From the NCBI GenBank assembly GCA_965112155.1, contig OZ218103.1: 64,000 nucleotides of DNA; one strand, 5' to 3'. Within the stretch, counting starts at the first letter, position 1, and each line of letters starts with the position of its first letter. The notes below the pieces were generated by a model. The model was not told where the DNA came from and did not search any database. It was given only the letters and a program-made list of their open reading frames with translations. This document shows, one piece after another, positions 9,361 through 52,455 of this stretch. Origin of the DNA: Podarcis liolepis (lineage: Eukaryota). The position numbers were made by a program, and so were the translations under genes.

Positions 9361-9364
<4 letters not shown>

Positions 9365-17286: not shown

Positions 17287-17374
17287 TTAGAATGCACAGA
17301 GTCAGTTGCCTGATCCACTAGGTTGCAGTAATGAAACAGAAACCCCAAACCACTTTCATTTTTTAAAGCCGAAA

Positions 17375-25975: not shown

Positions 25976-26025
25976 TACCTGATAATATTTCTCCATGGGG
26001 TTATTAGCAGTGGACCAAAGCAGTA

Positions 26026-26254: not shown

Positions 26255-26297
26255 TAGTTATTGGAACATGAAGTCTCCCCTAACCCTGAGGAAATAA

Positions 26298-26515
26298 GTA
26301 GTAGATAGGTAGCCGTGTTGGTCTGCCATAGTCAAAATAAAAAATTCCTTCCAGTAGCACCTTAAAGACCAACTAAGTTAGTTCTTGGTATGAGCTTTCG
26401 TGTGCATGCACACTTCTTCAGAAGTGAAGAAGAAGTGTGCATGCACACGAAAGCTCATACCAAGAACTAACTTAGTTGGTCTTTAAGGTGCTACTGGAAG
26501 GAATTTTTTATTTTG
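26298..26515. mobile_element. Penelope-like element remnant (inverted pLTR foldback)
   Basis: Perfect 87-bp inverted repeat (26333-26419 / 26429-26515), hammerhead-like core, 13-bp TSD cctgaggaaataa (26285-26297 and 26516-26528). Confidence 0.85.
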
Positions 26516-28007: not shown

Positions 28008-28110
28008 CATCTACCCTCCCTGAAAACAAATCAGAATGAATTCTTAGTAAGTAACCAGTGTCATCTAATCTTCCTGAAAACAAATCATGATGAATGATCC
28101 GTAACCAAGG
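28008..28110. repeat. Imperfect ~54-bp tandem duplication
   Basis: tcatcta...cctgaaaacaaatca...gtaacca occurs twice. Confidence 0.75.
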
Positions 28111-28569
28111 TGCTTGGAGGAAGCACAAAGCTGGAGGGGTGTCCTGATCCTCTCTGGGACAGGATCTCTCACTTGCCTCTTTGCCTCCCTTTATCTACTT
28201 GTAGATTTGTAAATAAAGCAAATATTCTAGAAATTCTGTTAAGTCTCTGTTCCTTCTATCCCATTTAAACTGCTAAAGTACTATTTGCCCTTATAGCAAC
28301 CCAGCCAGGTTTTGTAGGCAGCTTAGCTAAATTCCCCAGAGAAAGTGACAAATTTAGTGGAAAGCAGCAGTGAGAATGGCTACAGATCAGGCAGTGGAAC
28401 AGAAAGGAGATGAAATGGCCGAAGTAGCTAAATTAGGTCAGTGCATATGACTTTCCCGCTGCCGTTTTTAGGTTATGCAAATGACTTGGGGAGACAGAAT
28501 TTTTAGGCTTCCCAAATTCACTGGCAGGGCTGAGAAAACACAGCCAAAAAGCAACCCACGATTTACAGC

Positions 28570-28886
28570 TACTCCGGAACTGGGTCAACATACGGCAATG
28601 TGAAAATTAAAGTCAACAAATGCAAAGTAATGTTTGTTGCTGTGCGATTCTGGGAGCCCCTGCTAGGCCTAATTTATATAAATGGCTCTGAGAAGCTGAC
28701 TGAAAACTGGTTAAGTCTGCTGACAACATGGAATTGGGCATCCGAGTGGATGCAGCAGGAGGGGGGAGACCAGAAGAAGAAAGAAAAGCCAGCATAGAAA
28801 TGTTAGTCTCCTTCTCCCAGCCATGTTGCTTGGCTGATGCGCAGCAAATGAGGCTTAATGTTGACAAATGCAAAAGCAATGCATTT
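28570..28886 (+). mobile_element. Two short decayed CR1 RT fragments
   Basis: KIKVNKCKVM (~28600-28632) and QQMRLNVDKCK (~28842-28875), both resembling the CR1 WQMxFNxxKCKVM motif. Confidence 0.5.
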
Positions 28887-31800
28887 TATTTCTTAACAAA
28901 AGCAGATGACAGAATAGGACTTTCCTGGGATCTCAGCAGCAGTAAGTTTGCAACATCCAGAGCAGATAAAGGGGGAAGGAGGGGAAGAGGCTCTTTCTTC
29001 ACATAGCACAACCAAAAGATGCATTTTCACATAAGGAATAAAGCAGAACTGCAGAAATAACTTTCACCTGCTCAACTTTTCTTCTAAGTAAAAAGGAATG
29101 AATTGAAAAATATATTTGCAAATAGATGTATTTGAATAGTAAAAACTCCATTACTATCCTGCTCAAAACTGGCCCCTCCTGTAAACAGACAAATGTCACA
29201 CAAATTTTAAAAAGCAGACAGCACCCCCAAACAAGCAACAATAAGAAGCCCATAAGCCTCAACTAAAAGGGGGAGGAAGTGACAGGATGCCTTGGTGGGT
29301 GTCAAGGAGAATGTCTGAGGGTGTTACGGTGCCCATGGGTTCCACACTGGGGACCCTTAAATGAAATGGCAGGAATAGCCAGAGATTAGCTGGAGACCAG
29401 GTTGAGGGGTTTTCATTCCCACCATGAGATTGCTGATGGATGGATATACATTGAAAGTATCCTTTCAGTATGGGTATGCCTACATTTATGGGCCTTTGTC
29501 TTAATTTATGCTTCTGGGTTCATTTAGAATGTATCTACATGGCTTAGAGGTGGGAAAGGGAAAGTATAACCTACAGGTCTGCCAGTTAATTGGGTCTCCT
29601 TAGCTGGGCCATGTGTAGATGTCATTTCCCCTGAACTCTGATGCTTTTCATATTCCATACATTCCAGAGTGATCTTTCCCGTTCAGAATGCAAAACAAGA
29701 ATCACTGCCATTAGGCTGAGTGAGAGAGCCATGTCAGACACCTGATTTCAGGCATCATGAAAGGGCAATAAATGGTTTGCTATTTAATTTGTTTCTATTT
29801 TACTTTTACTACCAGGGAGGGAAGGAGGTGCTTGCGGGATTTTCTGACTCGGGTACTAAATAACTTGGATGGCCTTGGTTATTACACACTTTGGCTTTCA
29901 TTCATTCATTGGTTTGTCTATATGCCACTGTTTGGCTCAAAGGTCCCCCAAGCAGTGAACAGATTAATACAAAAGCAAATATAATACAAAATAGCAAACA
30001 TTAGGTACCCCATCATCCACACTTTGTGCACTAGTGAGCTACATTCATGCTCTCACCACAAAGGCAGTTCCCCAGCATCTACCCTCTCACTTAGAAGTCA
30101 GGTTGACTCACCTCTCCATCTTTGACCTAGGAGCAAGCCCATTCACAAACAATTGTCAATTGGGAGTTTCCTCACCCTCATCCTAAGCCAAAGGACCAAC
30201 CCAAAGAGTAACCTTCACCTTTAGCATCAGCTCCCTCTTTAGTGCTGCCTCAATCATCCCACAGACACCTCCAAATAAACAGGCTTCTCCTTAGAAACAG
30301 GTAAGGTGTGGCCAAGTTCTCACTTTTGCTCTCCACAGGTAAGGCTAGATGGCTCCACCTTCTGGCTCCTCAACAGGCTGTTCTCCACAGGTGCAGAAGC
30401 AGATGCAGTAAAGAAGAGTTGGGGAAGCTAAATTTGGCATTCGCCTTCCTATTATTGTTACCCGCTGTCTCCATTTGTTTGTGTGAATGGAGGGGACAGG
30501 GGCACCATCTGCTTCCACTCTAAACGGTGAATGCCTTGGGCTGGCCCTGCTTCCTAGCCATTGGCTCCATTAGGAAACACCTGTCAGACGTTCGGCACAT
30601 TAGCAAGCAATGTCAAGCAAAAGAGGTTTGAGCAGACAGCATCCATAACAGCATGGTATAGAAAAGGAGTGGGGATGTTTTTCAGCCCAAGACCCGTTTT
30701 TCTTTCTGAGGATCCTTCCAGAAGCTAAATGCCAAGGGTGGGTAGAGCCAAAGGCAAAGGTGGGCAGAGGAATGAATATGAATGTTACCTGTGTTCTGTA
30801 GGCTAGATTCTACACACACACACAGCCACACCCTCTCCATCCATTCAGGAAAGCATAAACACTCGAGAAGAATGGAAAGCAAGGTGGGGGAGGGGTTTGT
30901 GTCCTGGGAGTACAAAGGGCTGGATAGAGAAGCCCTGCAGGCCTGTGGTTTTTCATCCCTGGTCTAGGTTAATGATACAGACATTGGGAAGCACAACGCA
31001 CACCAGAATTACCATAGAAGGCACAAGGAATAGTTGCAACTACAATAGGAGAAAAAGCAATGTCTAAACTGAGTAAAAAAATAGGACATTGAGGATAAAA
31101 TACAAGGTCCTACCTTGACCACCAACTTTATAGCACAATTAAAGGGTGTCTCCATTTAAAACAACATTTATTCTGTAAGTTCCAGTGAAGCAAGAAGCAT
31201 CTGTTGACACCAGCATTAGAGTGACTAAATGAATAAAAAGTCCTAAGCCACTGTAAAGAAGACCTGTGAGAGGAAAGGTAATATAAAGGGCTAGACACAG
31301 ATGTACTGTATCAAATAAAATCCCAGTGCGTGACCCCTTTAAAAACAAATCAACTCAAGCTTTCAGACCTTCTCTGTGCATTAAACCACTTGAAGCACAA
31401 GTCAAATAGTACAGAAATCTCTGCAAGACCACTGTTAACTCAGTGTTGAATCCGAATTCCCACCCCCAGTAATCCTACTAATCCAAGGGCAGGTGGCCAT
31501 TGGCAGATTTCAAGAGACTTGCTTAACACCTTTATAAAGAAAGAAACAATGGAAAGTACACCTAGAGAGCAGGTCATAAATTGCTAACCTAGAGAGCAGG
31601 TGGTAAATAGCACAAGTGGTTTCTGTACTAGCGTAGGGGAAAAAAAACTATCTTCAGTTTTGTCCGAATTATACAATGAAATTTTAAGGTATTTAAAATC
31701 AGGGATGTATGAAACATACCCATTTAGTTCTATGGATATATCCACATGTATATTGCAAATACTCCAAGTATATATTGCATGCCCAGGGTGATTATGTTCA

Positions 31801-32391
31801 TTAGAGTAATATGTCATACCATTGCTGCAAAGGTCATTTGCATTCTGGTTTAACTACTCTGTAATCAGAACATATTCTTCCCCATCATCATGCCTCATTC
31901 CATGCAATTGGTTTAACTGTCAATACTTTGGACAAGTCATCACTTCTTTTGCGTATTTGAATCAGCAATAACTGCTTGGAAACTTATTACAGGAACACCC
32001 TGTTTTATTGTATTTCACCTACATTGCTGCTTAGGAGGAGGTTGTGGGTGCAGCTGCAGGCAGCCCAGCTGCTTCCAGGAGAAGGAAGCCTCTTCTTGCC
32101 ACAGGAGTGGAGCTGGTTAGGGTTGGAGGAGGGTTTTCCCTTCCCATTCCTGCAGCCAGCGGGTCATGGCTTAATAAGCAACTCTATAGTGTCAACATAA
32201 CTAAATGCACTGGGAAACCATTGTAACTCACTTTAGTACAATATTCACTTTATTGTGCTGGTCTGGAACTGAACCTGTAATATCTATGAGTCTATTTATA
32301 ACTAATAAGAAGGTATTTAGGAAATTATTGCCTAATTATTAAAATTTGATTGCTACTGATAGTGGACCCCTCTGGTGGAGTTCATAGGAAA

Positions 32392-32396
<5 letters not shown>

Positions 32397-32441
<45 letters not shown>
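32397..32441. repeat. (GA)n microsatellite
   Basis: Directly visible. Confidence 0.98.
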
Positions 32442-32448
<7 letters not shown>

Positions 32449-33189
32449 AGTCACATTGAAAGTCACCTCTTAAATCATTACAATATTAATTGTATACATC
32501 GTATTTAACTTTTGGGACCAAATTCATGACACGCGCAAGATCAAAATCATGACAAGATTCAAGCAAACACTTGTGCTACTAGATTTGCTCATGTTCCTAT
32601 ACATACATACAACTCACAAACCTGTATCTTATCCATGTTGTCACAGAAGCTACTCAAACTCACATTGCCCAAACCATAAGTGCAAACTTTTCCTGTTACA
32701 AAGCTAAAAAGAAGCAGATAAACTGCCTTATATCGGGTAAAGATGGGCAGGGAAAAGGTACTATGGGGAAAAGCTCAAATGCAAATCACAGGACTTTAGA
32801 GCAGCAAGATTATGGGAATGAGCAAGATAGAGGTAGTAGGAAGACATTAATAATTACCTGTCCCAAGGAAGGGGGAGTAAAGAGTTTTATTGCTTTCAGA
32901 GTTTTACTGTGACCTGCGGGTGCAAGGTCAGGGCTGGGTCTTGGACTCTCGGCAAAAACTAAGCACAAATTATTTGAGGCTAATCCGCCTGGACATCATT
33001 AACAGCAAGCTTGTGAGCTTTCAGTAAACAAGCAGAAAATATTTTCTAGTCTCAAGTGTTGATGGGGTGGCTCAAGGTAGGCTAGGTTTCATAAATTCCC
33101 ACTGAGATAAATCCTCTCCCTACCCTAGGTTCCATGAAAAGGCTTCCTTTCAGGGTAACACTGGCTTGTGCTTCCTGCAGGGGTCTTGA

Positions 33190-33720
33190 CTAATGTAAGA
33201 GGAGGAAATGGGCATGGCTAAGAAGCAGGGAGGCAGAAAGGATGCAAGATTTGTGATCCAGGTAAGCTGAAGAAGTAGTCTGACTCCCAATGGCATCCAT
33301 GGTGTCAGAGAGTTGGATGATGTGGAAGAGCGTCCTGGAGGATTTCAAAAAGCTGAATGAATAGGAGAGAGACATGGGACAGCTTCAGTGGAGAAAGATT
33401 GGTCATAGTGGAGAATGAGAGGTGACCAGTTAGTTGTAAGAAAGAAACTTCTTGATGGGCATAGCTGTAACACAAAGAGTGATCTCATTAAGGACAGGGC
33501 TGGAAGGAAGGGGCATTGAATGCCAAGGATATAGCTGTCAATAAACATCACAATACAATTTTCCTGCCAGAGAGAGGCAGGGAGGTCATGAGAGAGCTCT
33601 GGTTAATCAAAACTCACAGCCCAGGTGACTGAGATGTCCCTCATTGGGAAAGGTGGGGATGTTTCCAAAGGAATATAATCCAATTAGTGGGAGAAGATGC
33701 TTGCTGGAGGATGCCCTATT
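33190..33720 (-). mobile_element. Possible ancient L2 fragment
   Basis: Purine-rich plus strand; minus-strand peptide AYLDHKSCILSASLLLSH weakly resembles L2 SxLDYCNxLLxGLP. Confidence 0.3.
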
Positions 33721-36700
33721 GTTACTTTCCTAGAGTTAATTGATAATTGAATAAGAGTTTAGTGGCAAAAGTTCCAGCAACTAATTAGGCTTGAGCATAT
33801 GTCTTCAGACCCTTGCACAGTTCAATCTCAAGTACTGTTGTTGTCGGGGACTTTCTTTAGCTTACTGCTAAACTGGGATGTGCTTAAATCTGAACAATAA
33901 TCACTTTCTCTGATTCACCACAATGGCACCAGGTGCACTGCTCAGAGCAGAGCTAAAATGCACACACAGTATCCGGGCAAGTGCAGAGTTTCAGTTTAAC
34001 TGAGTTCTCCGCAATACTAGATAACAAAAGATACAACTACGTTCGCTTTCAACAATTTGGAAGCTCAAAATGCAGTGGTTGACAATTAGCAACATCTTGA
34101 TGAATGTCTATATTTCTGGTTTTGACCAGCAACCAAACTTTTGGTGGTTCAAAATGCCTGGAATCCTACTCTCCCCTTAACTCTGGGGCACAGATGCAGC
34201 TTCTCATTAATATGAGGTAGTGTAGCAGACTAGCAATTGTGGAGAACATGATGAAGGCTGGACCACTACTGTGGGTGAGGCAGAGGATACCAGATGAAGC
34301 CACAGGCTGTTAAGGGCTGAGCTTCCTGATTCATTTGAGTCATTGTGCTTAACAAACACTGTGATAATTTCCTAGTGCACTACAGGGAAGAAAGACAGAT
34401 TGATAGTTACTTCTCCTTTCCTGGTCTAAGAGTAAGCAGTAGAACATTGTGCCCTTGAAATCTGTAGAAGAGAGTGTTGGTTTCACTGTTGCAGCTGAGT
34501 GACAGAAGACTGCATATTGGCAATGAAATGTTCAAAGAGGTATGAGCTGAAATCCGCTAAAACAATGAAAGGTTCACCAATGCAAGTGAGGCTGCAACCA
34601 GCTCTGTCAGAAATGCATAAACATAATGCTGAGGCAGGCCACATATTGACCTGGAAGATTGATTTCACGGCCTCCTAGAAGGAACATTAACTGTCTATGG
34701 CTGGAGTCTGAAGGTGTACTTCGCTCTGGGCTTTCACTGCTCTTTAGATCTGGAGTCTTTGCATCAAAGGTCATCAAGATCAGCCAGTATATGATCCAAG
34801 TTAGGGGCCTGTCAGAAGGAAATCTCAGAAACAAATCACCCTGTAGCAGCAGCATTAGTTCCAGGTAGTTTAATGGGCCCGGGGTGCTTTGAAACAAGAG
34901 CTGCTCTTTATGTTTTAGGGAGATATGATGGAATGCCACCTAAGAGTATGAGTTTTCTGGAAGCCCTGGTTGCAGGCCTATGATTACTTGTGCTATAGAT
35001 TAACAGGAAAAATACTAACAGAATATTAGGGACCAGGTTCATTATATTCTTTAAACACAGTGAAACACAGTAGTACGTCTTGGGGCTTTTAATGTTAAAT
35101 CTGTACATTAGCCCTTGCCCATTTCACACATGCTTGTGGCTGCATCTGATATACTTCATACAGGCTAGAGATGCATGCCCTTGTAAACGTCAAGGTCAAA
35201 CACAAATATCTTGTATAGCACTTCCCCTGCGGTTCCCATGGACTCCCCATAGGCCCTGATGGACCCAGTTCCATATTAAGGGGAAATCAAAGCACAAGTT
35301 CTCTCACGCAACAAACCCACTGTACTACATGCCAACAAATAAGCATGCATGCCCTGATGCCATTCACATACTTCTGTGATGGGAAGTGGTAATACGTTAA
35401 ACACTTTGTGGTATGGAGCTAGAAGCAACACCAGTTAGAAACAAGGTAATTCCAGAAAGAAACGAGTACTAGAATGAGGAGGGAAGAGGATGCACAAATC
35501 TTTTTTGCAGGTTGCGATAAGGAAGAGCAGGGGTTTTGCTTACATCCTGACCCCACTTGAGTAGCACCGACACACAGATCCTTAGTTTCTTATAAACATG
35601 CCACATAAATCCACGTGGCTCTTAAGAAACAAACACAGCATCCATATAAAATACAATCAGATTCCATCAGGGGCTGTTCTGTATTTGTGTCTCCCCCCCC
35701 CCCCAGCAGTTTCCAAAGTGTAGAAGAGTTTGCAAATTGTATCATGCTGTTCCTGTTAATGCAGCTCAGGTTGTTGAGGGTCCTCATCCCCAGTCAGAGC
35801 AGGAGTCAAGTAGATTTGCTAGGAAACTGTTCTGACTTCTGCAATGTTTTCCCTCCTCCCCTAGCTCATTTTCCATTGACACCTCTAGCCTGGTTTTCTG
35901 GTTCCTGGCAGGGTTAACTGGCAGACCCAGCAGGGGGGAAAGGAACGTCTCTGCCCCCTAACCGATTTCCTTTTATCACTGCTTGCTGTCCAGTTTGCAA
36001 TGAACAGTTGGCTCCTGAAAGGGTTACATTGCCAGCTCAACATGCAGGAGATTTATTACAATTCCACGATGAGGCCTAGTTTATACCACACAGTCACAAA
36101 AGTGTGACCTGCAGCTGTAGAAAAGTTGTTGCCACCATGAAAGAGCACAGGTAATTCATTGAAGCGACACTATTTAGACTCTTGCCGAGCAGAGCAAGAT
36201 GGTCCAGAGATCTCAGCAGATCAGGACATCTTGATCTCGTCAGCCCAGCTAAGGCAACCATAAATAAAAACAGCCCTAGGGATTGTTCTCAGTTTCACCA
36301 ACAGAGAGCACTTTGTTCCCTGCAGTGGGTTGAGGTGTGTGTGGGGGGGCTGTTTTGTTTTTAACAGGCCAAATGACTAGATCATGTCAAGAAATACAAC
36401 CGGCCATTAAGTGAGTTTGTATGAGGAAGCCTCAGCTCACTGCCGTTATCTATGAAGTTGTAATTCTTAAACTGCTTCAGAACAGAACATAAAGCATAAA
36501 AGTGATTGCATTAAACAGAAGCTGGGACTTTTAGGAAACAGTTTAAGATGGACAAAGCACTGTGCAGCTCAGGATGGAAACCTGGTGTCTGTTAACTTCA
36601 TTATTCAGCATGACACACCCCCCCTCCTTTAAACCTATTAGATATGATTGCATTTGCCCCCAGGAGCACATAACCATTTACCCTCCTACTCAATGAAGAA

Positions 36701-39700
36701 ATCAAAAATAACTCAGTTTGAAAATGATGATGGGACCACTTTTTTCTGAAAAGGACATCTATTTGCTTAAATTTAGCAGGATACTTTTAAGAGAATGTCA
36801 GAAAGAAGTTTTGCCAATTTTTGATGGAGGGGAAGGGGAAGAAACCTTTATTTTGGCAGAAGGTGTTGTGCGACCTTCTGTCTCAACAGGCTCAGATCAG
36901 CCTCCAAGCCTATAGGAATATGTGTCATTATAAATTTATTTTAAACAATTTACATCCCATCTTCTTTCCATGCGAGAAGCAGAGGCAGCAAGATTTCACA
37001 CCATACCCTGGAACCACAATTGAGGAATGACCCTGCTAATCCACTAGTTACAGCATGCATGGATATCAATTTAGGCATCATTTGAGGTGGGTGGGCAACT
37101 GCACCAGCAATGATAAAGGTCTGTCCCCACAGGGTACAAATGTGTTATGTATGAACCCCAACCTAATTTTCTTCATCAAAATTTTAATATAGATTTAACA
37201 TGTACCAGGCACTAGTGATTGGCTTCATGGGATTCCAAGAGCAGACTATCTGAAAAGTAGCCTACTGCTTGATCACATCCCCCTGTTACCTTCTTTGGCT
37301 GGAGCTTACCATGCACTGCTTTATATCAGTATTTACTCAGCCCTTTTTATGGAACACATACTGTTTTAGATATAAGTGGTGCTATTACAGGCTCACAAAA
37401 ACAACATGCGCTCAGCATTCTTAAAACATTGGCCTGAGCTCTGGTTTTTGGTGGGTTTTTAAAAATATCATTATTGCTACATTTCTACAGCATTCTCTGG
37501 TTTTACTCTTTCGGGAAACAACACATCTAAACTGCGTGCCTGCTTTTGGTTTCCTGACGCTGGGTGGCTGCATTTTGTTTCTATTCATTTTTAATTTACA
37601 AGCAGGTGTTTGAAAAGAGCCATCCCAGTAAGAGGCCCATTGATTTATGTTCTATTCCAGTAAGTTTCCTTTATTAAAAATGGCACCAGCAGGAGTAGCT
37701 TCTAAAAATGAAGGACTCCTATTGGTTTGACAATATGCTTGCATCGTTCACCTGCTCACATCTCACCCAACCAGTTTTTTTTATTTATTCACACCTTATG
37801 TATGCATTGTGGGGATACAGGGTATGTAAGCAACTCAGCTCTGGTTCATACATTTGCATGAAATAGTGGGGCATAGGGTCCCTCTTTGCAAATAACCTCC
37901 CATCTGAGCCAGACCTTATGGGGGAATGCCTGGAAGATACAGAGGCCTGCTTCACTTGATTCTTTCGGGGAAGGCGGTCTGTGAACTGGACTGGCATGAG
38001 ACTGAGCTCACACAGGCAAGAGTTTTCTACGTGGAAGAAGGGAGAGGTTTGTGTCCTGTTTCACCAGTGCTTCTGTGGTACTGATGCTGACTGCCAAAGG
38101 GCTGTTTAACACTTTGCACAGCCAACATGATTTCAGCATGTCTATCACAATAAACACCATACCAAATGAAAGGGAGACTCATCCCAGTGAATGCGCTGAA
38201 AGCACAATGGGTATGTAACAGATGAGGTGTGGCCCTAAGCAGAAAAGACTAAACAAGAGGTAGAAGGCAGTTGAAATGAATTTGCCCATTAACCTACAGC
38301 AGGGCAGTAGCGGGGGGGGGGGGCTACTTTTCCACTGAACTGTTATCTAGAAATGAAATGACATGATTTTAATTATGCTGATCTCGTGTTGTACTCTGGC
38401 TAATTAAAATTGCCCCATTGGTAGAAAAGCAACCACAACAGACAGCAGAACCAATCCCAGGTGAATTAGCCTATTTAACTGTAGCAGTTCTTTGTTGGCC
38501 TATCAGCTCTGTGAAAGAATACTGTATAACCTTTCCCTCTACTACAGTGTAAAGACCATAGCCAAGAATAAGCATTCCCTCAATGCCTTTCTTAGGTTTC
38601 TTTTGCACCCTATTTTCAAAGCAGTTGGCAAAATATCCTATTTTATTTAACCACTCAACCTTGTTAGACTGAGGGACAAATGTCTTGCCTAAGAATGACT
38701 TGGAGGGATCAGTTCTTCAGTATTCCATGCTCAACTATTTTATGCTCTACAATGTTGCTTTTTTCTTTCTTTCTTTTTTTGTTTTGTTCTGCAGTGTTTC
38801 AGAAATGCCCCTGCAACACGATCATCTATCGACATAGCTCCTGGCACCTAACGATCGTGAGACCCACCACTGGCACCTCAGTTACACTTCCACACAAAAT
38901 CCTGAACAACTCCTGCAATGTTAGAAGGAGGCCCAAAGAACACCTATGGATGAATAGATGACATCAGTGAACATTTTGGAGTGATTTACAACAGCTTTGG
39001 TATCAAACAAATGTGATGCCTGGAAACTATCCTAAAGGGACGCCAAGAGAGCTTTTGAGCTGGTTTTAAAACTCTGTTGATTGCTGTTTTGACAATAAAT
39101 AATCCCAGAAGGGAGTTACGGAACAGATTGCAGCACTGGAGGATTTTGAAACAGAGAATACAAAAAAAGGGCGGACCATTTCTCCAAGGACTGACAGACA
39201 GTATGTCCATTACACGTGTGCTGCACTGGGTGATGACGAACATATATTCCCTATAGGATACAAGGAAACATATATGCATGCTGCATAAAGACTCAATGCC
39301 TGTTTACAGCATTAAGATTTAGAGGTTGCCATGCCCAGGTTTCATCCTAAGACTGTTAATCTTTAATGATGATTTTCCAGTTTAAAATCCCTAGACCAGT
39401 CACAGATCCTTGTATTTCTCTGTGAAATCTCTAGTCTGATGGGAACTCTGTCAGCAACTCCACGCCAGAATGTTGTTGGTTCAGATCTACCTCTGCCCTT
39501 GCTTCCTCCAAGGTTGTGACCTAGTGCTGGTGGCTTGTTTCCATATGCTACACCTGCTCACAAGCCACAGGCAGATGAAAGAGAAGTTAAGACTCCCTGA
39601 TCTGGTCATGGACTTGTTAAAATGTAAACAAGTCTGAGTGGCAAACAGGTCATTTGTAAACATGATCCTATTATAGCAATCTAAAGAATGTTCCTGGAAT

Positions 39701-42436
39701 GTGAACTAATGCAATATACAACGATGTTGTTGGGAATCACGCTTCCCAACTATACAAGGTGGAGAGACATTTGGTATGGTATACTCTGTTTCCCTAAAAC
39801 AGACTCTAATAGGAACCTGGCTGCAATGCAAAAGCTGAGGACAAAAACACCTGCCTGAGTTGAGTCACCATCCAGTTTTCCCTCAACATGCTGGCTGGGA
39901 AGCAACAGCAGTTTTTTTTTATTTATTTTGATGTGACAAGAGCTAGGCTGGCTTTGGAGTTGATTAACATCATCTGTTGCTGCCTATGCACTTGTCCCTG
40001 CACCCTCATATGTACAGGTGGTGGTTCATGATACACATTTATAAACAAATGGGTTGTTGTTGTTTTCTTTAAAAATACCCTATAACCCTTGTACCTCCTA
40101 TGGCAGAAACACCCCCCCCCCGTAAAGATTGTTCCTGAACTTCCCACTATAATGAGATGATGACACTGAAAGAAAGATTGCATCAGGTTTGCAGAACAAC
40201 TTTGTAGTATGAAGTTATCTTTTAAGAATGCCCTTCGATACAACAAAAACCTAAATGTAAACCAAGCTTTGCCTCCTATAACAACAACAAAGTAAATGTC
40301 CAGATCAACTGATCCCTAACTTGACTCACAAACTTCAGCTACAATCAATGGCAGTGTGAAACGTTCCATAAATATTGTGAGAATGCGAAAACACCTGCAA
40401 CAGCAAGCAATTAACTCCTTCCTTTTATTAAAGCCTCATTTAAATCCAGCTACATACTTCTACAGTGACTGCTAACCTTGAATTCACATTGGCAAGTGTG
40501 TCCGCAACTGGCTTTCTGTGTGGATCACTTTTGAGAACGTTTAAGACAAATGCCTGCCTGTTCTTCAGTCACCTCTTTTCTAACCAATAAGCCGTGAAGC
40601 TACTGAAATCATTGGCAAAATTACTCTTGATGTTAACGGGGGATGGTTTGGCATAGCACACTGCAGTAAGGGGATGAATTGAGGCTGATGCACATACTAG
40701 GCTGATCCTGGCATGGTCTGACAGGCTAGTGCTCCAATTTATGCCTGATGAGGATATAACCCAAAGAGAAGAATGGAGCAGAGACAAATGTCTTTCATCT
40801 ATTTACAGCAGCATCTGTAACCCTAAATATGATTATTTACTGTCTTCTGTATGTAAGAAAAGGATGAATCTCAACCTATTATAGCTACAATGTGGATAAT
40901 TTCTTTCCCCCAGCTATTACAGAAATGCTTGAATCACCATGATGATAACTACTGGCCACCATCGCTGCCTGCCAAGTGAAACTGAAGCTATAAAGATTTT
41001 AAAAGCAGGGGCAGTGGCTTGACTTTATTTCACAGCAACAAAGAAAACATCCAAATATTTCTCCTGTAAGGACATTTGGAGGAAGGAGGAAAATCTCATT
41101 TGTGCCACAAGAGGGCACTTTAACTACAGACAAATGCAATCTATGCTGTTTAGGAATCACCCAGGAAAGAAGGTGATGGAGGAAGAGGAAAACTGCTTAG
41201 TTATCTCCTGGGTTATAGGATGATTGCATTTGACTGCAGAGATACAGAAAGATGCACCAAGCCAGTAGTTTGCAACAGAATTCCCTATTTGCCTGCTGCT
41301 GCTGCTGCTGTTGTTGTTTTCTTTTTCTTTTTTTAAAGTCATATGGGCTGGCCCATATATACTGCAAAAGGGGCAAACTTAAGGAAAAACGAAGATTGTA
41401 TTGACCAGATGCAGGACACATGGCATTGCTTTTCAAATGAAAAGCCACAAGAACGCCAAAGCCCATGGGTCCAAATCAGTCTCTTAGATCGGACACGCAT
41501 GACCCACCAACCCAAGTGCAGATCACCAGCCATGCAGGACAGGACTGTTCATCGGGGCTTGAGAAACCTATGGGGATCATTTCTTTTGCACTTTGCCTGG
41601 AACTGCCAAACAGAAGGCAGAGATTGCTATGCATATATATGGGAGGCCACAATACAGGGATGGGAAGCTAAATCTGGCTCGGTGGTCACAAGTTGGGCTG
41701 GCCTGTCACTATAGGTGCTCCTTAACCCCCCATACTATTTCTGATGCCCTTTCTAGGTATCTTTCTCTTTACTTGCACTCTGTGTGGAGAGGGAAACCTT
41801 TAGGGCACCTTTGCAGATATATCCACAAACTTTACTAGCAGAACACATTTTTATATGGTGAAATCATGCCCATTTGAGGCTTGAAAGCCAACCCCTCCCA
41901 AATAAACTCCCCATTTGCAGCCCCTTACCTGCACAACTACCTGATTTCACAGAGCTCCATGTGAACATGAGTCTTTCTGTGTGCACTGGAGCTGCAGAAA
42001 TCTTGTGACTGGTATCTGCCTCACACACGACGGCGATTAAGGTTTTGGAATAACTCAGAAGGTTGCTTTAAGTTTGTCTGGTGTAAGTGTTTAAAGTTAG
42101 CAGGCACATAAGTAAGCCAGGCACGGACAAACTGGGGATGAAGGTGTGTTTCTCAGACAGAGCTGGCAGCTGCCTTCGTTTATCGGCAGGCCATTTATCA
42201 TCTCAAGAAAAATATTGACGGTTCACAAGATTCACACTTGCCCTGGCCCTGGGCTGAAGAAATGCTGTCTTCCAGGAAGGCTTTGAAAATGGAACCAAAT
42301 CAAGGAACTGTGCCTCAAAAAGAAAGGGAGGGCATTGTATTAAGCAAGCAGAGGAAAGCGGGAAGACTCCTTGTGTGAAAAGCTGGCTACAAAAGGATAA
42401 CACTGGTGCCAGCCACTGGGAATACATTTCTAGTAG

Positions 42437-43527
42437 ATTCCATCTTTCTACCCCAACAAAAGTAGGCCTAAAAAGACTGATGTGGGCATTTTCAGGATAT
42501 TGCCAGAGAGAACAGCTGGCTGTGAATTACAAGAAAACCCAAGTCATGGTTTTCTCAAGAAACTATAGAGCCCATAGATGGAGCATGGACAACCAGCTCA
42601 TTGAACAGGTCAAAGTTTTCAAATATCTCAGCCTTATTTTCCAGTCTACAGGGTCATGGGGAGCACAACAGAAGTGTGCAAAAGAAAAAGCTTCCCAGAG
42701 TATCAAAATTCTGACACGCTTTTTCTACAGAAAAGGTGGTAAACATACACTATCAGCCCTAGAAGTGTTCCAAGCTAAACCCCTGGCACAGTTATTATAT
42801 GGGGCTCAGATCTGGACAGGCACTCAGCTTGGATCTATGGAAGCTGTCCAATCAAAGTTCTTAAGGCAAATTTTCTCTGTACCACCTCATTGCACCTAAT
42901 CTTCCCTTGGCAGAATTACGGGTATGGCATAGGACACTTAACTATTGGCTTCGCCTAAACTGAAATCCCCCTGGTCTAATATCCCTAGTGCTGCAAGATC
43001 GTCACAAGAGCACCTGGACTAAAATTGTCTATCAAAAACTTCACTCTTGTGGTTTATCACCACAACAGCTACTCACACTGGATTTTAGTAAAGCAAACAG
43101 TCTAATTAGTCAGTGCCTAAATGATATTAAGCGAGAGGACAACTTGGCCATAATAAGGAAATTTTGTCCATGGTACGACTATTTCCCACCTACCCATTTC
43201 AACTTGGTGGCGCATGCCCTTCTGGCTTGCACTCTTTATAAAGACTTGAGGAATGAGGTTATCATCCCTCTTTTATTGTCCATTCCGGGTCACCCAGCCA
43301 CTGTCACAGTGTCCTTTCTTTTGGCAGATCAAAATGAGCAGGTGACAGCAAAGATTGCAGGTTTTTAGCTGGGGCAATTAGAATAAGATCCTCTATTTGA
43401 CTATTGATTCAAAACCCAAAAATGTATTTTATATAATTGACTTTTTATCTTTATTCTTTGTATATTGTATTGTTGTTTTATTGCTATGGTCGGTGGCTGA
43501 TGCAAATAAAGATTCATCCATTCATTT
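42437..43527 (+). mobile_element. 5'-truncated non-LTR retrotransposon, RTE-X-like
   Basis: RT C-terminal motifs GLKRLM..F..YC...LAVNYKKTQVMVF, EQVKVFKYL and LLYGAQIW; HALLACTLYKDLR zinc-knuckle remnant; aataaa followed by an (attc)-type tail; TSD at(t/c)tctagtag at 42426-42436 and 43528-43538. Confidence 0.8.
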
Positions 43528-44403
43528 ATCTCTAGTAGCTGCATACTGCAGAAGTTGTTTCGGACAATAGCTGAACCATTATGTCTTTGCTCCTGTAAAT
43601 GTAGATATGTGGACAACGCACACCTGTGCCACAACTAAACTAATGTCATTCCAGGATGGCGGGCTCGGAAATAAGCTGTATGTCTCAGAAAAGGATTTTA
43701 GCACACTGTTTGTCTAGCCTTCCTTAAACCAATAACTTAAGGGCAAGGGCCAAGAATGGAGCATTATGAGTGCTGTGTTCCTGGTTTGTGTGGCCACTGT
43801 CAGTGGCAAGGAGTTTTGAGCAGGGCTCCTGCTAAGGTGACACATCAAGCTGGGTTTAAGGTCTCACCCTTGGCATAAGAGGGCAAGTGGGTGAGGATGC
43901 ATTTGGGTTCCCTAGCACTTTCCTGTGCCCTTCCCTATTGCCTCTGGATGGTGCCGGCTTACCCATGATGAGGGGTGGAAAGCGAGAACTAGCCATGCCC
44001 AGCTGAGAAGGACTAAGTCACTTTGAATGGAGAAACATATATGCTAGTTATAGGTAGTAGTTAGTAGTTAAATTTGTGGGGAAGTGTATCCACAACTGTT
44101 TCTTTGCTGACTTCCTTAAGTATGGCAGAGTGGATTGTATGTGAAGGAGAAGAAAAGCAAGAACTGTAGTTAGTCTAGGATTTGTTATTCTGCTGAAAGG
44201 CAAGGATTTCTAAGGAGCCTGAGAGATCTAGTTGTATCTCCATGGGGATTTAGACACCTTACTGCTGCTTGTTCTCTGGGTCAACTTCTAAATCTCATGT
44301 CCAGGGGATTAAGGTGCAAGTCAGAAAAATATACAATCACAATGATACCATGAGTTCTGGTTGGTGACAAGTATGAGATGGAGCAATGATAGACATATCC
44401 TGC

Positions 44404-44411
44404 ACTACTAC

Positions 44412-44443
<32 letters not shown>

Positions 44444-44474
44444 CTTCTTCTTCTTCTTCTTCTTCTTCTTCTTC
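44404..44474. repeat. (CTA)n(CTT)n compound microsatellite
   Basis: Directly visible; explains the poly-Phe ORF. Confidence 0.98.
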
Positions 44475-45245
44475 AGCATCTCACATTCATCTTTGGATAT
44501 ACCCCTCTCCAGTGTTCTCGGTTGTTTGCTTCCTGCACCCACATAAGGCTTACTGTTAATCTTAAATCATGCTCTCATCACATAGGTGGCTGTCTCCTTA
44601 GTCTTTTAAAATGGTAGGGTCCCACACAAGCATATTCCATTGGCCTGAGTCATCTCTTGCCACATATCCCGCACATGCCCATTTTAACTCTGCAGACATA
44701 TGCAGGACACCTGGCAAGCGATGGAATAAAGTAACGCTAGTGTGGAGATCTCTTACATGTGAAGAAATGATCAACCCCGGAAGATAGTTCCACTTAAATT
44801 ATTGGTAAAGCGAGCTGAGAAATAGCACAGAATTTGTTAATATAAAAGCAGCAGCAACACAAATGAATATGGATAGCTGACACCGCAGTTGCAATGCAGA
44901 ATGGGGTCATCTAAAGTAACAGTGTTAAAAAACAACAACACCTCTTGGAAAAATAGCTCATTTCTAAGTCCATTCCAAATTTTAAGCTTCAACATGGTCC
45001 TGCAGACATCAACAGGAATGAGACTGCTTGTAAGACAACACACGCACAGCCTCTTTCCTGTTCCCAAAACATATTTGGCAGCAGCACTACCACCACACGG
45101 AGAACTCTTGAGAAAGGCTGGTACTGTTCTCCTAATTATGCCTGAGGATGCTGCCACAACAATGTCCCAGGTACAAGGACCAGGGAATTCTAAACAACGG
45201 GCATTCATTTCCATACACACACCCAAATCCAAGACCTGTCACTGC

Positions 45246-45380
45246 CAGGGCTTTTTTTAAAGCCAGAACTCACTGGAACTCAGTTTCAGCACCTCTCAGG
45301 TGGGTACCATTGCCATTGTAAGAGAACAAGGGAGGTGTTCGTGGTGAGTTCTGGCACCTCTTTTTCTAGAAAAAATAGCT
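45246..45380. mobile_element. MITE (hAT/Tip100-like)
   Basis: cagggctttttt...aaaaaatagc termini, internal gccagaactcac/gtgagttctggc inverted pair. Confidence 0.6.
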
Positions 45381-46069
45381 TTTGAGTAGTAGTGGTGGTG
45401 GTGACCTGTGCTATCTTAGAAACTGCTTAAATAAGATTTGAAGAGTGGGTGTTCATTGTTTATGAGGAGGGCTAGATTTTACTCCTTCGGACAAATCATG
45501 CCATTTTGTACATGGCAGCCAAAGTAAAAAAACAAACTACATTTAACACAGAAACAAAGATGCCTGTAATAAAGGTCCTGCTCTTAGGGCTGTTCAGCAA
45601 CAGGAAAGTATGCCAGGTTTGCGGAATTCACTGGAACTTTGTTTGCTATACTAAAGGTGGATTCAATTTGTTTCTTAGCTTCTCCAGACACTTTTTAAAA
45701 ATGTAGGGCAGGGAGAGAAAAAATCCGTACCTAGCAGGATGCTGTGCATTGTCATTAATTAAAGTCTCTAGAGAGTACAAAGGCAAAAGCAAAAATGAGA
45801 GTATTATTGCTAAATTAAATCAATATTGCCAGCATTCTCTTGTGACATAAATACAAAATAGGCATGCAGGCTTCCCATGGTCTCTGGAATTTGAATGGCA
45901 TAAATAATATGCTGCCTTCCTAGAGCAGATTACCAAGCATTCAAAAAGGTGAGATGTCGTAGTCTATGAGAGATTTTATTTCTGTAGGGGATGCCATAGG
46001 GTCAGTAGTTTTGACCAATCAGTGGTCACTTCGGCAGCTGCTGGTTGCCATTATTACTACTACTACAGG

Positions 46070-46305
46070 GAATCAGACAGGGGGCCTTCTTGGTAGTGAC
46101 ACCCACCCTGCGAAATGCCCTCTCATCCAATATTAAGGAGATGAGTAATTATGTAACATTTAGGAAACATCTGAAGGCAATCCTGTATAGGGAAGTGTTT
46201 AAGGTTTAAGGATTTATTATGTTTTTATATATGCTGGAAGCTGGGTCAACCCAGTCAGCAGGGCAAGGTGAAAATTCTTATAATTAATAATTATTAATTA
46301 TTATA
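46070..46305 (+). mobile_element. L2-like LINE 3' end
   Basis: gggccttcttggtagtgacacccaccctg.gaaatgccct...tttaggaaacatctgaagg resembles the L2 RAFSVxAPxLWNxLP...FxxxLK C-terminus; (taa)-rich tail. Confidence 0.7.
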
Positions 46306-46749
46306 TTCCACTCAGCTTTGCGCCAATATGGTGGCATCTAATGTTGTTCTTGTTTTGTTCATGCTCCAAGCTGCCAGGTCCCAGAATTTATCTTCCCTTT
46401 GCTCAGACACCGCCAGCCCTAGTTCTTGCCACTGTCATCTCACAACATTCGCTATTTTACAAAATTCGCTATTTTATTCTTAAGGATTTTCTTATATGTT
46501 ACTCTAATCCTACTTATATCCCCCTTATTAATTACAGAGGGTACCCCCCTCAAAAAAAAATCCTAATAACTCTTAGAAGATCTTTCTTTGCCTCCTTGCA
46601 TTGCCCATCAAAACAATTTCTCTGGCTTCCCTGTATACCGTTTGTGGCATTGGGATATATGAGATAGGGTCTGATGACTGTATTACACACACACACACAC
46701 AAACACAAACACATATTGTGCCTTGGTCAGACCACACCAGGAGTACTGT

Positions 46750-46887
46750 GTGGACTCTCCTTTCTTGGAAGTTTTTAAGTAGAGGTTGGATGGTAATCTA
46801 TCATGTATGATTTAGTTGCAATTCCTATATTGCCAGGGGTTGGACCAGCTGATCCTCAGGGTCCCTTCCAACTCTACAATTCTATGA
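46750..46887 (+). mobile_element. CR1 LINE 3' end
   Basis: ttggaagtttttaagtagaggttggatgg...ggggttggac...ggtcccttccaactctacaattctatga. Confidence 0.85.
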
Positions 46888-47545
46888 AACGTAGAAGCTC
46901 CGCTGCTATTGTAAAGAGCCCCATTGAATCTCTGGCTAGAAAAGGAATTTCCCAGAGACACTCCTGCAAGAAGTCTAGAAGCACAATACAGCACAGTGAA
47001 CTTGTAAGCTTATTGCAGGCAAACAGGAACTTATATGGAGTGAGGAAGTATGTGTGCAATAATTGAAAATAGCTTTTGTTTTAGTGTGGCGATAAAGCAG
47101 CATTTCACAGATGGTACAGAGGACCAGGATCTTACTAATGGCTTGCTAGGCTGATACTATTATAAACTTGGCAAATGGTGCATGTGGAAGCTAGTAGTGT
47201 ACTGTAGCATTTGCTTTGGCTGCAATTAATTGATAACTTAGATTCCTGCTGACACTTACTTTTTTCCAGAAGAGAACTGGCAGAAGATATGCAACTAGCA
47301 TTTCATTTTCTCATTATAAAGGAGCATACTTTTTTTTTTTAAAAAAAAAAAAATCTACCTCTTGATACCAAGCACATTGGAATGTGAAGAAAAAGAACTT
47401 GGGAGGAGGCAGGGGCCAGGGAGCTGAGTTCTGAGTTAAAACAAATGTCGCTAATGGAGAAGGCAAGGGAAAAGGGTATGGCAGTGCATGGTGGAACAGC
47501 AGAAACCTGTCTTCACATATTGCTGAAAAGGAGGATGTGCATCAC

Positions 47546-47660
47546 CACATCCAGTGCTAGTCTAACTCAGAGTAGACTCACTGAAGGGAACAGGCTTGAC
47601 TAACTTAGGCTCATTAATTTCAGTGAGTCATCTCTGAGTGGTCTTAGTTGAATACTACTC
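47546..47660. mobile_element. ~120-bp palindromic MITE
   Basis: actcagagtagactcactgaa / ttcagtgagtcatctctgagt inverted arms. Confidence 0.6.
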
Positions 47661-47854
47661 TTAGACTGGACACATCTTCAAACAGAGGGCTGTCTTCCGA
47701 TAGCCTTTCAAACAGAAGACTGTAAAATCAGGAACATGGTCACCTTCTGCCTTGCTCTGCATAATCTGTAAGTGGCACATGTGTGTATACAGGGCTGTAC
47801 CCAGCAGTGTTAGAATAGAACCACTAAAATCACTGAAATGAACTTAAACTAGTT

Positions 47855-48051
47855 ACAGGTAGGTAGGCGTGTTGGTCTGCTGTAGTCGAAACAAAATAAA
47901 AAAATTCCTTCCAGTAGCACCTTAGAGACCAACTAAGTTTGTTATTGGTACGAGCTTTCGCGTGCATGCACACTTCTTCAGATACCTACGCATGCACACG
48001 AAAGCTCATACCAATAACTAACTTAGTTGGTCTCTAAGGTGCTACTGGAAG
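47855..48051. mobile_element. Penelope-like element remnant (inverted pLTR foldback)
   Basis: 65-bp inverted repeat with 3 mismatches (47905-47969 / 47990-48054), same family as the 26.3-kb copy, 15-bp TSD gaacttaaactagtt (47840-47854 and 48052-48066). Confidence 0.85.
47948..47985 (-). ncRNA. Minimal type I hammerhead ribozyme motif
   Basis: GUAU-CUGAAGA-A-GUGUG(CAUG)CACGC-GAAA-GC-UC-GUAC: conserved core, stem II, 4-bp stem I and a palindromic AGCU in place of stem III. Confidence 0.7.
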
Positions 48052-48480
48052 GAACTTAAACTAGTTGCTTTCATTTATTTCAGTGGGTTTGCTCTGAGCA
48101 TGACTTAGTTGGATTCAACCCATAAAGTCCAGCCCAATAATATGCAATAATTATCCCATACAATTGGGTAGGAAAGATCAGGGATGTGTGGATGTTAGGT
48201 CAATTTTGTGGAGGCAAGGCCAACCAAGGAGGAAGCAAATGTATGAGGTCCAACATGTTTAGCACATTCATTGTGCCATACGCACATATAAGATTCGACA
48301 TCAAGGTGGGATGTGAAGTTAAAAATGCATTCAGTTTGAAGACTAGCAACATGGCAGCTCTAGAGAAGACATTCTCAGAACTTCTATTCAGGTAATAGAA
48401 ATAAATCTTATTTTAAATTTAGCAATATGCACCATACATGCATTTGTTTGTACCTATATTATCCTTTAATCTGAGCAGTC

Positions 48481-48483
<3 letters not shown>

Positions 48484-48519
<36 letters not shown>
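48484..48519. repeat. (CA)n microsatellite
   Basis: Directly visible. Confidence 0.98.
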
Positions 48520-48521
<2 letters not shown>

Positions 48522-49835
48522 TGTATTAATACCTTCTGTTTAGAAGCCATACTCACAAACATGAAACATGGCAGAACATCTCAAAAAACCCCAGTGATAC
48601 ACAGATTTTTGTAATTAATCTATGCCCCAGGGGTCATTCAAAGTGTTCATTGCCCCGTCTTATTTGTACTTCAGACAGATGCAAACACACAGGTACCAAG
48701 TCAGTTGCCAAGCTAAATCTCCAATCTGACATGGTTGTTATCAACTTTACTCTCTTCAGGTAATTTTTGTAGACTGTTCATAGTTTTTAAGCCCTTCATT
48801 GCCTCCACTGCCTTTCAGCTTAGTATTGCCCTTTCTGTTGCACCTAAGTTTTGCAAGTATAACTAATAGGAATTTAACATTTACCAAAGAATTATTTCAA
48901 CTATAGGTTTAATAGCATTTTTATGGTTCTCTGAACAGCCAAGAGTTTAGCTATCAGTTCCATCTGCTTCGCTTCCTTCCAATTTGCTTATATGTAAGAG
49001 AAAGGAATAAGGACAAGCTTAAAGAAGGAAAAGAAATTGTGGTGCTCCCATTTAAATATGTTTCCCATTTAAACACTTTTCTCCTTGTAATTTTTTTGTT
49101 TCTCTGTACAAGCACCATAAATCATAACCATTGTCCATTTCTGTTTAAATAACCAAACTAAGAAGTTGAAAGCAGTGAACTGGGGGGGGGGGGCGCACAC
49201 AGAGTTGGTTTATTCTGTGCTCTTATTGAAATGTAAAGCATAGGAGACATTTTCAGCTCCTGTTTTGCATGCAGATTCCTCTCCTCCTCCTCCCCCCCCC
49301 AACCCCCCAACCTGGGCTGAACTTCCACCCTGACACTAGTGAAACCCCATTGAAATTTATGAGCACATCACATGGGTGGCACAAGGGTTATACATGCATC
49401 AGAGGTGAGGCATTTTTGCAACGTTTCCAGCAGCACCAAAAGCTACCCTTTTAGCACTTTGAGAGGACAACATAAAAGGGAGTGTAAAAATGCTTGCCCA
49501 TACAGAGCGAGGGCAATGAATGATACAACTGGTTGGAATTCTTCACGTGCCTAATGCAGCAAGCTCTGTTAGTTGGCTTTGTTTCCTTTAAGTGATGTCA
49601 TCACACAATCAAATCTGATTGGCTACATTGCACCTGGATGTCATCCCACTTGCTACATGACTTTTGACTGATAGATCTCTCTTAAGAAAGTGAAGAAAAC
49701 CCTAAACAGGAAAAAAATACGCTGAAATAGTATCAGACAGAGGAAAGCTATTTTCAGCCTCAATGGTGAAATGCAGAAATGTACACCACAGCCTTAATAA
49801 ATATTGTGGTCCTGTTTTGTAGCCCATAGTCAGTA

Positions 49836-49969
49836 CATGTGTAGTCACTGTGGTACTTTCCAGATGTTGCTGGACTACAACTCCCATCATTCCTAATAAT
49901 TGGAGATGCTGGGGCTGATGGGAATTCTAGTCCAACAACACATGGAGGGTATCACATTGGCTATCCCTG
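49836..49969. mobile_element. ~130-bp hAT-like MITE
   Basis: ccagatgttgctggactacaactcccatca / tgatgggaattctagtccaacaacacatgg arms. Confidence 0.7.
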
Positions 49970-50033
49970 TTCACTGCTACCAGAAATAGTTACTGCTTCC
50001 TCTTCCAGCATCTTCAGGAGAATACATGCTATT

Positions 50034-50165
50034 GGGTTGGATCCAGCCCAGGTTTGACCAGCTTAGGTCTTATTGAAATTAATTGGACATCCATTAGTTG
50101 TAACTAATATTTCATATTACTTTCAATCGAACCTAAGTGCTACCAACTTGTTCTGGATCCAATCC
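50034..50165. mobile_element. Palindromic MITE
   Basis: TIR ggttggatccag / ctggatccaatcc with internal cttaggt..attgaaa / tttcaat..acctaag arms. Confidence 0.65.
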
Positions 50166-52228
50166 ACAGATTTCACTGTGGGCCATATAAATAAAATTAA
50201 CATATTGTTTGAATTAACATAATCAAATTACACTTTTAAATTCTCCTCTTAAAAAGTACAATTAGCTACAGAAGGGTTCATCTCAACACAGTTCAGTAGA
50301 AAAAAATGTTTTCCCTGCAGTCATTAATGAACTCCAAGGTCATTAAAAAAAACCTCAACCATGTTATTTAATTACCAATTTGCAAACATGCCCATAAAGA
50401 GCTGCTGCAACCTAACTAGCATGGTTTCATTTTAGCTGCAAGTACGTCGGTTACCAGGACACATCTTGACATTAAAGAGGGTGATTTTCAACGCTGACGT
50501 GTTGTCTTCTTAAGCTTGATCATTTATAAATTAGAAAAACAGTGCTCCACACAATACATTAAAGAACTCTGCTTTGTCTTCTACTTAAGAAATGCAGCTA
50601 ACTAGAAATCACAATCACCGAGTCTCTCTGGTAAATTAGGATGATTTGACAAGAGTGATTTCTTAGATAAAAAGCTGGTGTTTTGAGTACAATCCCTGGC
50701 AGAGACAGGAACTCTTATCCCTATTCCCATGATAAGGCTGTCTTTTTATGCTTTCCTAACATGCCTCAATAGCTCCACAACATAATCTTCAACAAATTTC
50801 TTTATATCCAAGCTTGGGCACTCTAAAGGATCGTGGAATTTATAATGAAACAGTATTTCAATTATAATGAAATAGTATTCAATTAATCATTCTTGTGCCA
50901 ATTAATTTAGCTTCTGCAGTGATGATTTTCAAGAAGCTTGCTAGCCCTGCTTCTAACTTCCCAACCACAGTCATTCTTGGCCAGGGTCACAGAAAGTGAA
51001 ATGTAACATCAGAAGGTGGCAGGGAATGAGTGCAATGGAATTCAGGGCAAGGTAGGGCTTCTCCTCTTTGAGAGATCTAACATCCGCAAAGGAGGAAGGA
51101 GAGGAAGTTACATCCAAGCAGGGTAAGATTTTCCACATTAATACACAGGTTATGCTAACATTTTCCATGTTTGCCTGTTCAAACCAGCTTGTGCTACTTT
51201 TAGCACAGCAGGGTCAGCCATGCTTATGGAAATCAAACTGCAGTCTCAGCTTTTCTGTACCTCATCACCAAAGATAATCACTGCTATCTACAACTTATTT
51301 TCTGCTCTGGCTGGCTGATGGCAATGATGTATGAAGCAAGAGTGATATAGCTCCATCTGCATAAGACAAGTTGATCCTGCAGAGATATAAAGAGCCCCAA
51401 CCCCCCCCCCCATTCCCCAAAAAGGGAAATAAAAAGGAAGGATGACTTTTAGCAGGGAGCTGAGGAAGTGGGAGATGTAAATCATGGAGGGAATGCATAA
51501 TCAAGGACAGCACAGTCTTTTTTGAATAGTGACTGGCATTTTCTCACAGGGGCTAAAATTGCTTTTGACAGTTTAGACCAGGATTCAGAAGAGGTTGACG
51601 ACAGAACAAATTTAACACTTGCCACTGGATATAGAAGCTAATAGAAACTTCTGGCAAACCTTTGGAATATTATAGAATAGTATGAATAAACAGAAAAGGT
51701 GCACATTAATGAGGTTATACAATATACAGCCCTAAAAGAGGGGGGAGAAGACAGGTATATAGACATAGTCTTTGTTTCTACGGTTATTTTACTTGAAGAA
51801 GTTCTTGGAAGGAAAGCTTGCTATTGCCTCCTCCATCCTGCAGCCACCTGCACCCCTCATAAAACCTCAAGAGTATAGAAGGGCCCCCAGAACAACATGT
51901 GATGGGGAACAAAAGACTGATGGCGAAATGGGGGGGTTCAACCCCAGATTAGGCAGAAAGCTACCCAATTTAGCCTGGTTCTCTTCTGACCCAACAGCTC
52001 CCTCATGTCCCATCCCACATTCCCAGATACTCTGGCAAATGTGACACAAATGCTGCAGGGAGAATGAGGGGATGAGAAACATTCCGCCCATGAATTTTCT
52101 GATACTAAATTACTTCAGGATCCAAGCCATATCCTAACAGAAACTTCTGAGAAACCTTGAAAAGATGATATAACAGTGTGGTTGAGCAAAGAAGGTATTT
52201 TTTTGAGCTGCTGTTATTCCAAGTCTTT

Positions 52229-52237
52229 GCTTACCTT
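52229..52237 (-). promoter_or_regulatory. Alternative U2-type 5' splice site 58 nt inside the U12 intron
   Basis: AAG|GTAAGC, a near-consensus U2 donor (GT at 52234-52233). Usage is not demonstrated. Confidence 0.5.
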
Positions 52238-52282
52238 AGATTCCCAGGTCGTGGTAGAGCGAAAACAAAAACTAAAGCATCA

Positions 52283-52292
52283 CAAAGGATAC
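52283..52292 (-). promoter_or_regulatory. U12-type 5' splice site (U11/U6atac recognition)
   Basis: GTATCCTTTG, an exact match to the RTATCCTTT consensus at the exon boundary. Confidence 0.95.
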
Positions 52293-52455
52293 ACGTTTCT
52301 TCTGTGTACGGGACTGTAGAAGTAGTCCCTCCAACTATGTAACTGTAGAAGGAAACTTCCAGGGTGTAGCAGTAAGAGGTGTCATCAAGTAGCCCGCCAA
52401 GGAACCGACGGCCTGTCCCTGCCTTAACAGCATCTCGGTTGAAGGAGGTGCTTGA
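52293..52455 (-). CDS. AGBL4: AGBL4/CCP6 internal coding exon (163 nt), M14 carboxypeptidase domain with catalytic Glu
   Basis: Minus-strand translation SSTSFNRDAVKAGTGRRFLGGLLDDTSYCYTLEVSFYSYIVGGTTSTVPYTEET+T closely matches vertebrate AGBL4 as recalled. U2-type acceptor cttctctttcttacag, phase 0 start, phase 1 end, followed by GTATCCTTTG. Glu codon of YTLEVSF at 52359-52357. Confidence 0.97.

Follow-up and report, generated by a model that had tools for sequence, protein, structure and literature searches.

Splice sites of the major (U2) and the minor (U12) spliceosome have been described in competition in several systems. Among the closest are the vertebrate twintrons of the shifted type (Janice et al., 2013, PMC3564746), CENATAC/CCDC84 with its competing U2 and U12 donors (PMC8329584; bioRxiv 2020.08.06.239418), and the U2-in-U12 switches of SRSF10 and prospero (reviewed in PMC8329584). 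Splicing events around minor introns, including those of the categories CAT4 and CAT6, were reported by Olthof et al. (2019, PMC6717393; 2021, PMC8034651), and events observed when the minor spliceosome is inhibited are also available (PMC8034651, PMC6717393, PMC3728624). The supplement of PMC6717393, in the portion available, counts AGBL4, which encodes the tubulin deglutamylase CCP6, among the minor-intron genes of human and mouse, with introns of 47,265 nt and 39,043 nt, respectively, and expression mainly in the cerebrum and testis. The present analysis concerns this gene in the lizard Podarcis liolepis, in a window of 64,000 nucleotides (the whole stretch of DNA analysed, from contig OZ218103.1), where a U2-type donor is found at the head of the minor intron.

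As in the shifted twintrons (PMC3564746), the U12 intron of AGBL4 is overlapped by a possible U2 intron, both of whose splice sites are placed downstream of their U12 counterparts, and of the two the U12 intron is the older. Unlike them, AGBL4 is not among the 18 genes of that paper in the part available, the U2 route would here skip a whole exon, and the two routes come from different species, the U12 route from RNA contigs and the U2 route from predicted isoforms. Like CENATAC/CCDC84 (PMC8329584, available part), the locus has apparently conserved competing donors, one productive and one probably unproductive. However, CENATAC/CCDC84 has a shared acceptor, a productive major route and a spliceosome gene, whereas in AGBL4 the minor route is productive and the gene encodes a tubulin deglutamylase. 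SRSF10 and prospero share with AGBL4 a minor route to the full-length protein and a major route to a truncated or altered one, as far as the available part of the review (PMC8329584) goes. In contrast to AGBL4, whose intron is of the GT-AG type, both cases involve AT-AC introns within which U2 introns are nested, and their regulation has been measured. Finally, an alternative 5′ site in a minor intron and the skipping of the downstream exon are both defined categories (CAT4/CAT6). AGBL4 is listed as a minor-intron gene but presents no event above the 10% threshold in the available tables.

AGBL4 is missing from the twintron table (PMC3564746) and from the 2019 event table (PMC6717393) as available, and the accessible parts of PMC10853781 and PMC9867282 do not describe an AGBL4 event. 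Our literature search on AGBL4 with U12-type or minor introns found no report of a competing major donor. The minor intron itself was already known, and a competing major donor in AGBL4 is probably new to print within the literature searched. We consider it probably a real competing donor of the twintron kind, with membership in that class shown in part.

The minor intron and its second donor

AGBL4 spans the window, its best full-length relatives being Podarcis proteins, and the features of the gene lie on the minus strand. The coding exon before the minor intron (52293..52455, 163 nt, ending in phase 1) is covered by a spliced RNA contig and encodes the catalytic-type Glu (E411 of P0121). 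The U12-type GT-AG intron itself (1688..52292) measures 50,605 nt. It presents a GTATCCTT donor together with a TCCTTAAY-type branch site near the acceptor: the donor, GTATCCTTT (52284..52292), starts at 52292, and the branch site, TCCTTAAT (1699..1706), lies 11 nt before the acceptor, without a polypyrimidine tract. Both ends of the intron are confirmed by two RNA contigs of a close relative, in which this donor is used and its exon is joined to the exon at 1687. The exon behind the U12 acceptor (1591..1687, 97 nt, ending in phase 2) encodes most of the terminal helix of the M14 fold (residues 433-454) and a linker, and is followed by the weak U2 donor of the last intron, TG|GTAGGC (1585..1590). 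The last coding exon is located outside the window, 4,625 nt beyond 1591, at L002:6965 (G000:C6:54742965), and has an ordinary acceptor of the U2 type. A second AG lies 4 nt past this acceptor (L002:6966-6961, minus strand) and would shift the frame if used.

The competing U2-type donor, AAG|GTAAGC (52229..52237, minus strand, GT at 52234), lies 58 nt past the U12 donor. The extension between the two donors (52235..52292, minus strand) is free of stops and ends in phase 2, as does the 97-nt exon. All these numbers had been given correctly by a previous reading of the sequence only, which also proposed an in-frame join to the exon after 1591. The exon after 1591 is the last coding one, with a U2-type acceptor, and the join would be in frame, with a net change of -13 aa. 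The U2-type pair formed by the donor at 52234 and the acceptor at L002:6966 overlaps the U12 intron in the manner of twintrons. Three AG|GTAAG motifs are present in the 50,605-nt intron, including the site itself, and the chance rate is about 0.7% per 120 nt, or 1.4-5% with looser definitions of a donor. As a genome contains several hundred minor introns, a few such sites are expected by chance, so that the case from a single genome is suggestive only; the support for the donor comes from other species and not from the single lizard genome.

Other elements of the intron were also noted. Two more CAG|GTAAG motifs occur deep inside it, at window positions 41928 and 25379 (minus strand). A second copy of TCCTTAAT is present at 33494-33465 (minus strand), with a pyrimidine tract and a CAG about 28 nt later, which makes a possible internal acceptor. 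There are five further matches to RTATCCTTT, at 3880(-), 4039(+), 19524(+), 20529(-) and 29457(+), for a total of 6 against 1.27 expected; the flanks of these extra matches are unrelated and no adjoining exon was found. A hairpin between the U-rich stretch and the U2 donor was rejected (z-scores of -0.04, 0.64 and -0.03), and recursive splicing via a 58-nt first intron was rejected by reasoning, as these 58 nt have no U12 branch site.

A metagenome scan gave 12 loci, none of them recognisably amniote. In 4 or 5 of these the U12 donor occurs at the same position; one is fish-like and several are invertebrate-like. At locus L020:448, from an AT-rich organism, a short intron at the same position has a GTAAGA donor, possibly a U12-to-U2 conversion.

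The second donor in other species

For the comparison between species we used predicted proteins whose sequence continues into the intron, as is the case for 118 of the first 317, and not DNA or reads. The possible codons at the end of a Darwin's finch protein, selected for comparison after its end looked alike, fit the lizard donor at 16 of 18 bases. An equally good fit is found at 3 of the 127,966 positions of the window, and the likeness weakens upstream of the donor (11 of 33 over ten codons). Two finch models carry on where the Ensembl finch model ends. In the tinkerbird, six RefSeq models have a 55-nt extension in common, followed by Arg or Ser, consistent with AG| in phase 2, and then by six different tails and acceptors. 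Among primates, the exact bypass is present in two gibbon models (siamang and silvery gibbon, P0059 and P0134), in which a 91-nt extension leads into the last exon. In two other gibbon models the extension is joined to another exon, and one macaque model is spliced at the corresponding position, in phase 0. An Arg at a donor-like site of this kind is also the last residue of read-through proteins from human, orangutan, cattle and rhinoceros. The mammalian ends have 6-8 mismatches in 18 to the lizard site, and the best fits are only in the top 3-4% of positions, too poor a fit to show a common origin with the sauropsid donor. The alternative tails of birds and primates gave no convincing match in the window or in the 80 kb beyond it (best E 0.009).

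RefSeq 'X' models are supported by RNA evidence, and the predicted bird and primate isoforms presumably reflect real RNA. With the bird match and the exact join of extension to last exon annotated in two gibbon species, the donor that had been noticed in the lizard is probably real and old, and these comparisons suggest that it has likely been kept since the ancestor of lizards and birds.

Separate observations were made in carnivores. Models of dog and badger proteins (P0024, P0444-P0456) use a second donor located 51 nt into the AGBL4 minor intron, from which they reach the U12-acceptor exon in frame; judging by the read-through peptide of the dog, this donor may have a second GTATCC-like motif. 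Other dog models contain an 82-nt extension joined to the U12-acceptor exon out of frame.

The site could alternatively be a neutral cryptic one, retained only through slow change near exons, with no more than noise-level use in a long intron that is spliced slowly, the 'isoforms' coming from annotation pipelines. Several data fit with this explanation: the dog uses different donors and has a Trp-stop at the matching place, the tinkerbird tails have nothing in common, no U2 donor was seen in the single fish-like locus observed (L010), no AGBL4 event exceeds 10% in the human and mouse tables, and alternative splicing is more frequent for longer minor introns (PMC8034651/PMC6717393, available parts). 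It accounts less well for a lizard-finch likeness that is centred on the donor and fades upstream, for the low chance rate of such a site, and for donor-like ends that recur in apes, monkeys, cattle and rhinoceros. We regard a neutral site as unlikely.

Reading frame and protein product

A stop precedes the donor in 24 of the 29 named non-lacertid sauropsid species, protein ends being taken as stops and unnamed proteins except P0208, as well as the second tinamou model, being excluded from the 29. The frame is open in three species, all birds, and two models are unreadable. By group, the protein ends before the donor in all 7 squamates, all 6 turtles, the crocodile and 10 of the 15 birds. Most of these sauropsid read-throughs end 12-16 residues in, apparently at one codon, for which the open birds have Trp. 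In the lizard the corresponding position is a CGA codon 14 nt before the U2 donor (52249..52251, minus strand); the ends of skink, turtles, crocodile and most birds apparently fall on it, with homology inferred from the peptides. Across birds, turtles, skink and crocodile, the read-through lengths (12, 13, 14, 15 and 16 residues) differ by whole codons. An ancestral TGA at this codon would simply explain the peptides. It seems that this stop disappeared separately in lacertids, in the tinkerbird and in Darwin's finches (CGA in the lizard, Trp in the birds), so that the in-frame state would be a by-product and is likely a lineage accident.

The sequence-only reading had proposed, as a hypothesis, a U2/U12 switch towards a bypass isoform of CCP6, 13 aa shorter, in which a hydrophobic peptide takes the place of a conserved segment; in its full form this would be a regulated switch that makes a second functional CCP6. 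The frame and phase fit in the lizard and in the near-identical protein P0208, and the same join is annotated in the siamang and silvery gibbon, but the exact bypass was found in at least 2 of the 652 proteins sampled, with no others among the matches listed. The ape, cattle and rhinoceros ends are in phase 2, although an end of this kind can be recognised only if the case is an open one in phase 2. The donor is in phase 0 in three monkeys. All visible length differences among sauropsids are multiples of three, which could reflect some selection on the frame, although shifted lineages would be hard to see in proteins. Against this, the 7 other named squamates all end before the donor, none of the six tinkerbird models reaches the last exon, and the ten lacertid cluster members are all canonical. 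Moreover, apart from three initial residues that correspond to the U12 donor itself, the lizard, bird and ape extension peptides are unrelated. The comparison of the frame in related species, which had been suggested as a check, went against the proposal: neither the alternative frame nor the peptide is conserved.

The part of the protein concerned also argues against a second working form. Segment 433-448 has an occupancy of 97-99% and Gly437 is present in 75 of 79 diverse relatives. In the predicted structure (mean pLDDT 88.4), residues 430-454 form one helix (pLDDT 95-99), followed by disorder after 455. The model aligns to CCP5 through residue 450 (Z 44.9, rmsd 1.7, 387 residues) and to carboxypeptidase A up to its C-terminal end. 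A first model built from 25 close sequences (pLDDT 28) was discarded, and sequence searches of the PDB gave no match reaching the terminal helix. The confident model (mean pLDDT 88.4) assigns to the skipped exon the last helix of the carboxypeptidase fold, and with it a structural role. The bypass would retain the zinc ligands and the Glu, remove the terminal helix and replace the near-invariant Gly with Asp, and its product is predicted to be inactive. The conserved segment would indeed be exchanged, as had been proposed, but what is swapped is the terminal helix of the catalytic fold. Taken with the frame data, this makes a functional switch very improbable.

A donor kept while frame and spacing vary (52-58 nt in sauropsids, 91-118 nt in mammals) would also be expected from a landing pad for U1, guarding a minor intron of 40-50 kb from premature polyadenylation or aiding exon definition, with splicing as a by-product. 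The protection of transcripts by U1 from premature cleavage is established, and the U11-bound donor may not do such a job. The sense strand of the lizard intron contains 46 AATAAA, the first at intron position 3,079, and proteins derived from human cDNA, as well as several from RefSeq, terminate within the intron (P0136, P0370, P0625, P0161). Nevertheless, models splice at the donor in four lineages, and a literature search on minor introns, telescripting and intronic polyadenylation gave nothing related. We find this explanation rather doubtful.

Use in RNA and significance

RNA-type contigs of the close relative (organism A) were obtained from two of four runs, one contig each, both with the U12 junction into exon 1687. 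Neither contains the extension, at depths of 4.5 and 5.3, which are too low to reveal a minor form. The U2 route is present in predicted isoforms of birds and primates, whereas the lizard contigs (depth of about 5) present the U12 route only; the lizard may use the U2 donor as well. In the available tables of events above 10%, which cover 11 mouse and 8 human tissues, AGBL4 is absent, being either below 10% or removed by the read filter. These tables include the category of the donor, which mouse may or may not carry, and mouse testis expresses AGBL4 at 66 TPM (PMC6717393, available supplement). The main text of a 2026 study of a U11 testis knockout (PMC12956336) does not mention Agbl4, and the supplement of PMC8034651, possibly incomplete as available, has AGBL4 in the expression table only. 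Use of the donor is probably low.

The explanation that we prefer, with a probability of roughly one half, is that the U2 donor in the 50-kb AGBL4 minor intron, likely kept since the lizard-bird ancestor, is a low-use abort route that gives a helix-less and predicted-inactive CCP6. As long as the minor spliceosome has not committed to the intron, U1 would take the U2 donor, which would then be joined to any usable major acceptor, either that of the last exon or cryptic ones in the intron. Without a polypyrimidine tract at the U12 acceptor and with a weak donor after it, the 97-nt exon would be bypassed by the major spliceosome. Use of the donor would rise when the minor spliceosome is limiting. 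The resulting CCP6 without its last core helix would be in frame in a few sauropsids and truncated in most of them, since a stop before the donor gives a truncated product whatever the acceptor. The 50-nt rule of nonsense-mediated decay is established, and a transcript joined to the last exon would escape this decay with the stop either present or lost. An abort route is likely, rather than a new working form of the enzyme.

As a source of such a form, the donor is unlikely to matter. We also consider, with much reserve, that amniotes might keep a U1 site at the head of a very long minor intron as a dedicated control, by which minor-spliceosome activity would turn CCP6 off or guard the intron from premature polyadenylation. 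Tubulin deglutamylation in neurons and sperm would then be tied to the levels of U11 and U6atac. If the donor is used under regulation, it would provide a simple readout in U11 or U4atac mutants, and a brain- and testis-enriched tubulin enzyme would be added to the few genes in which U2/U12 competition is conserved.
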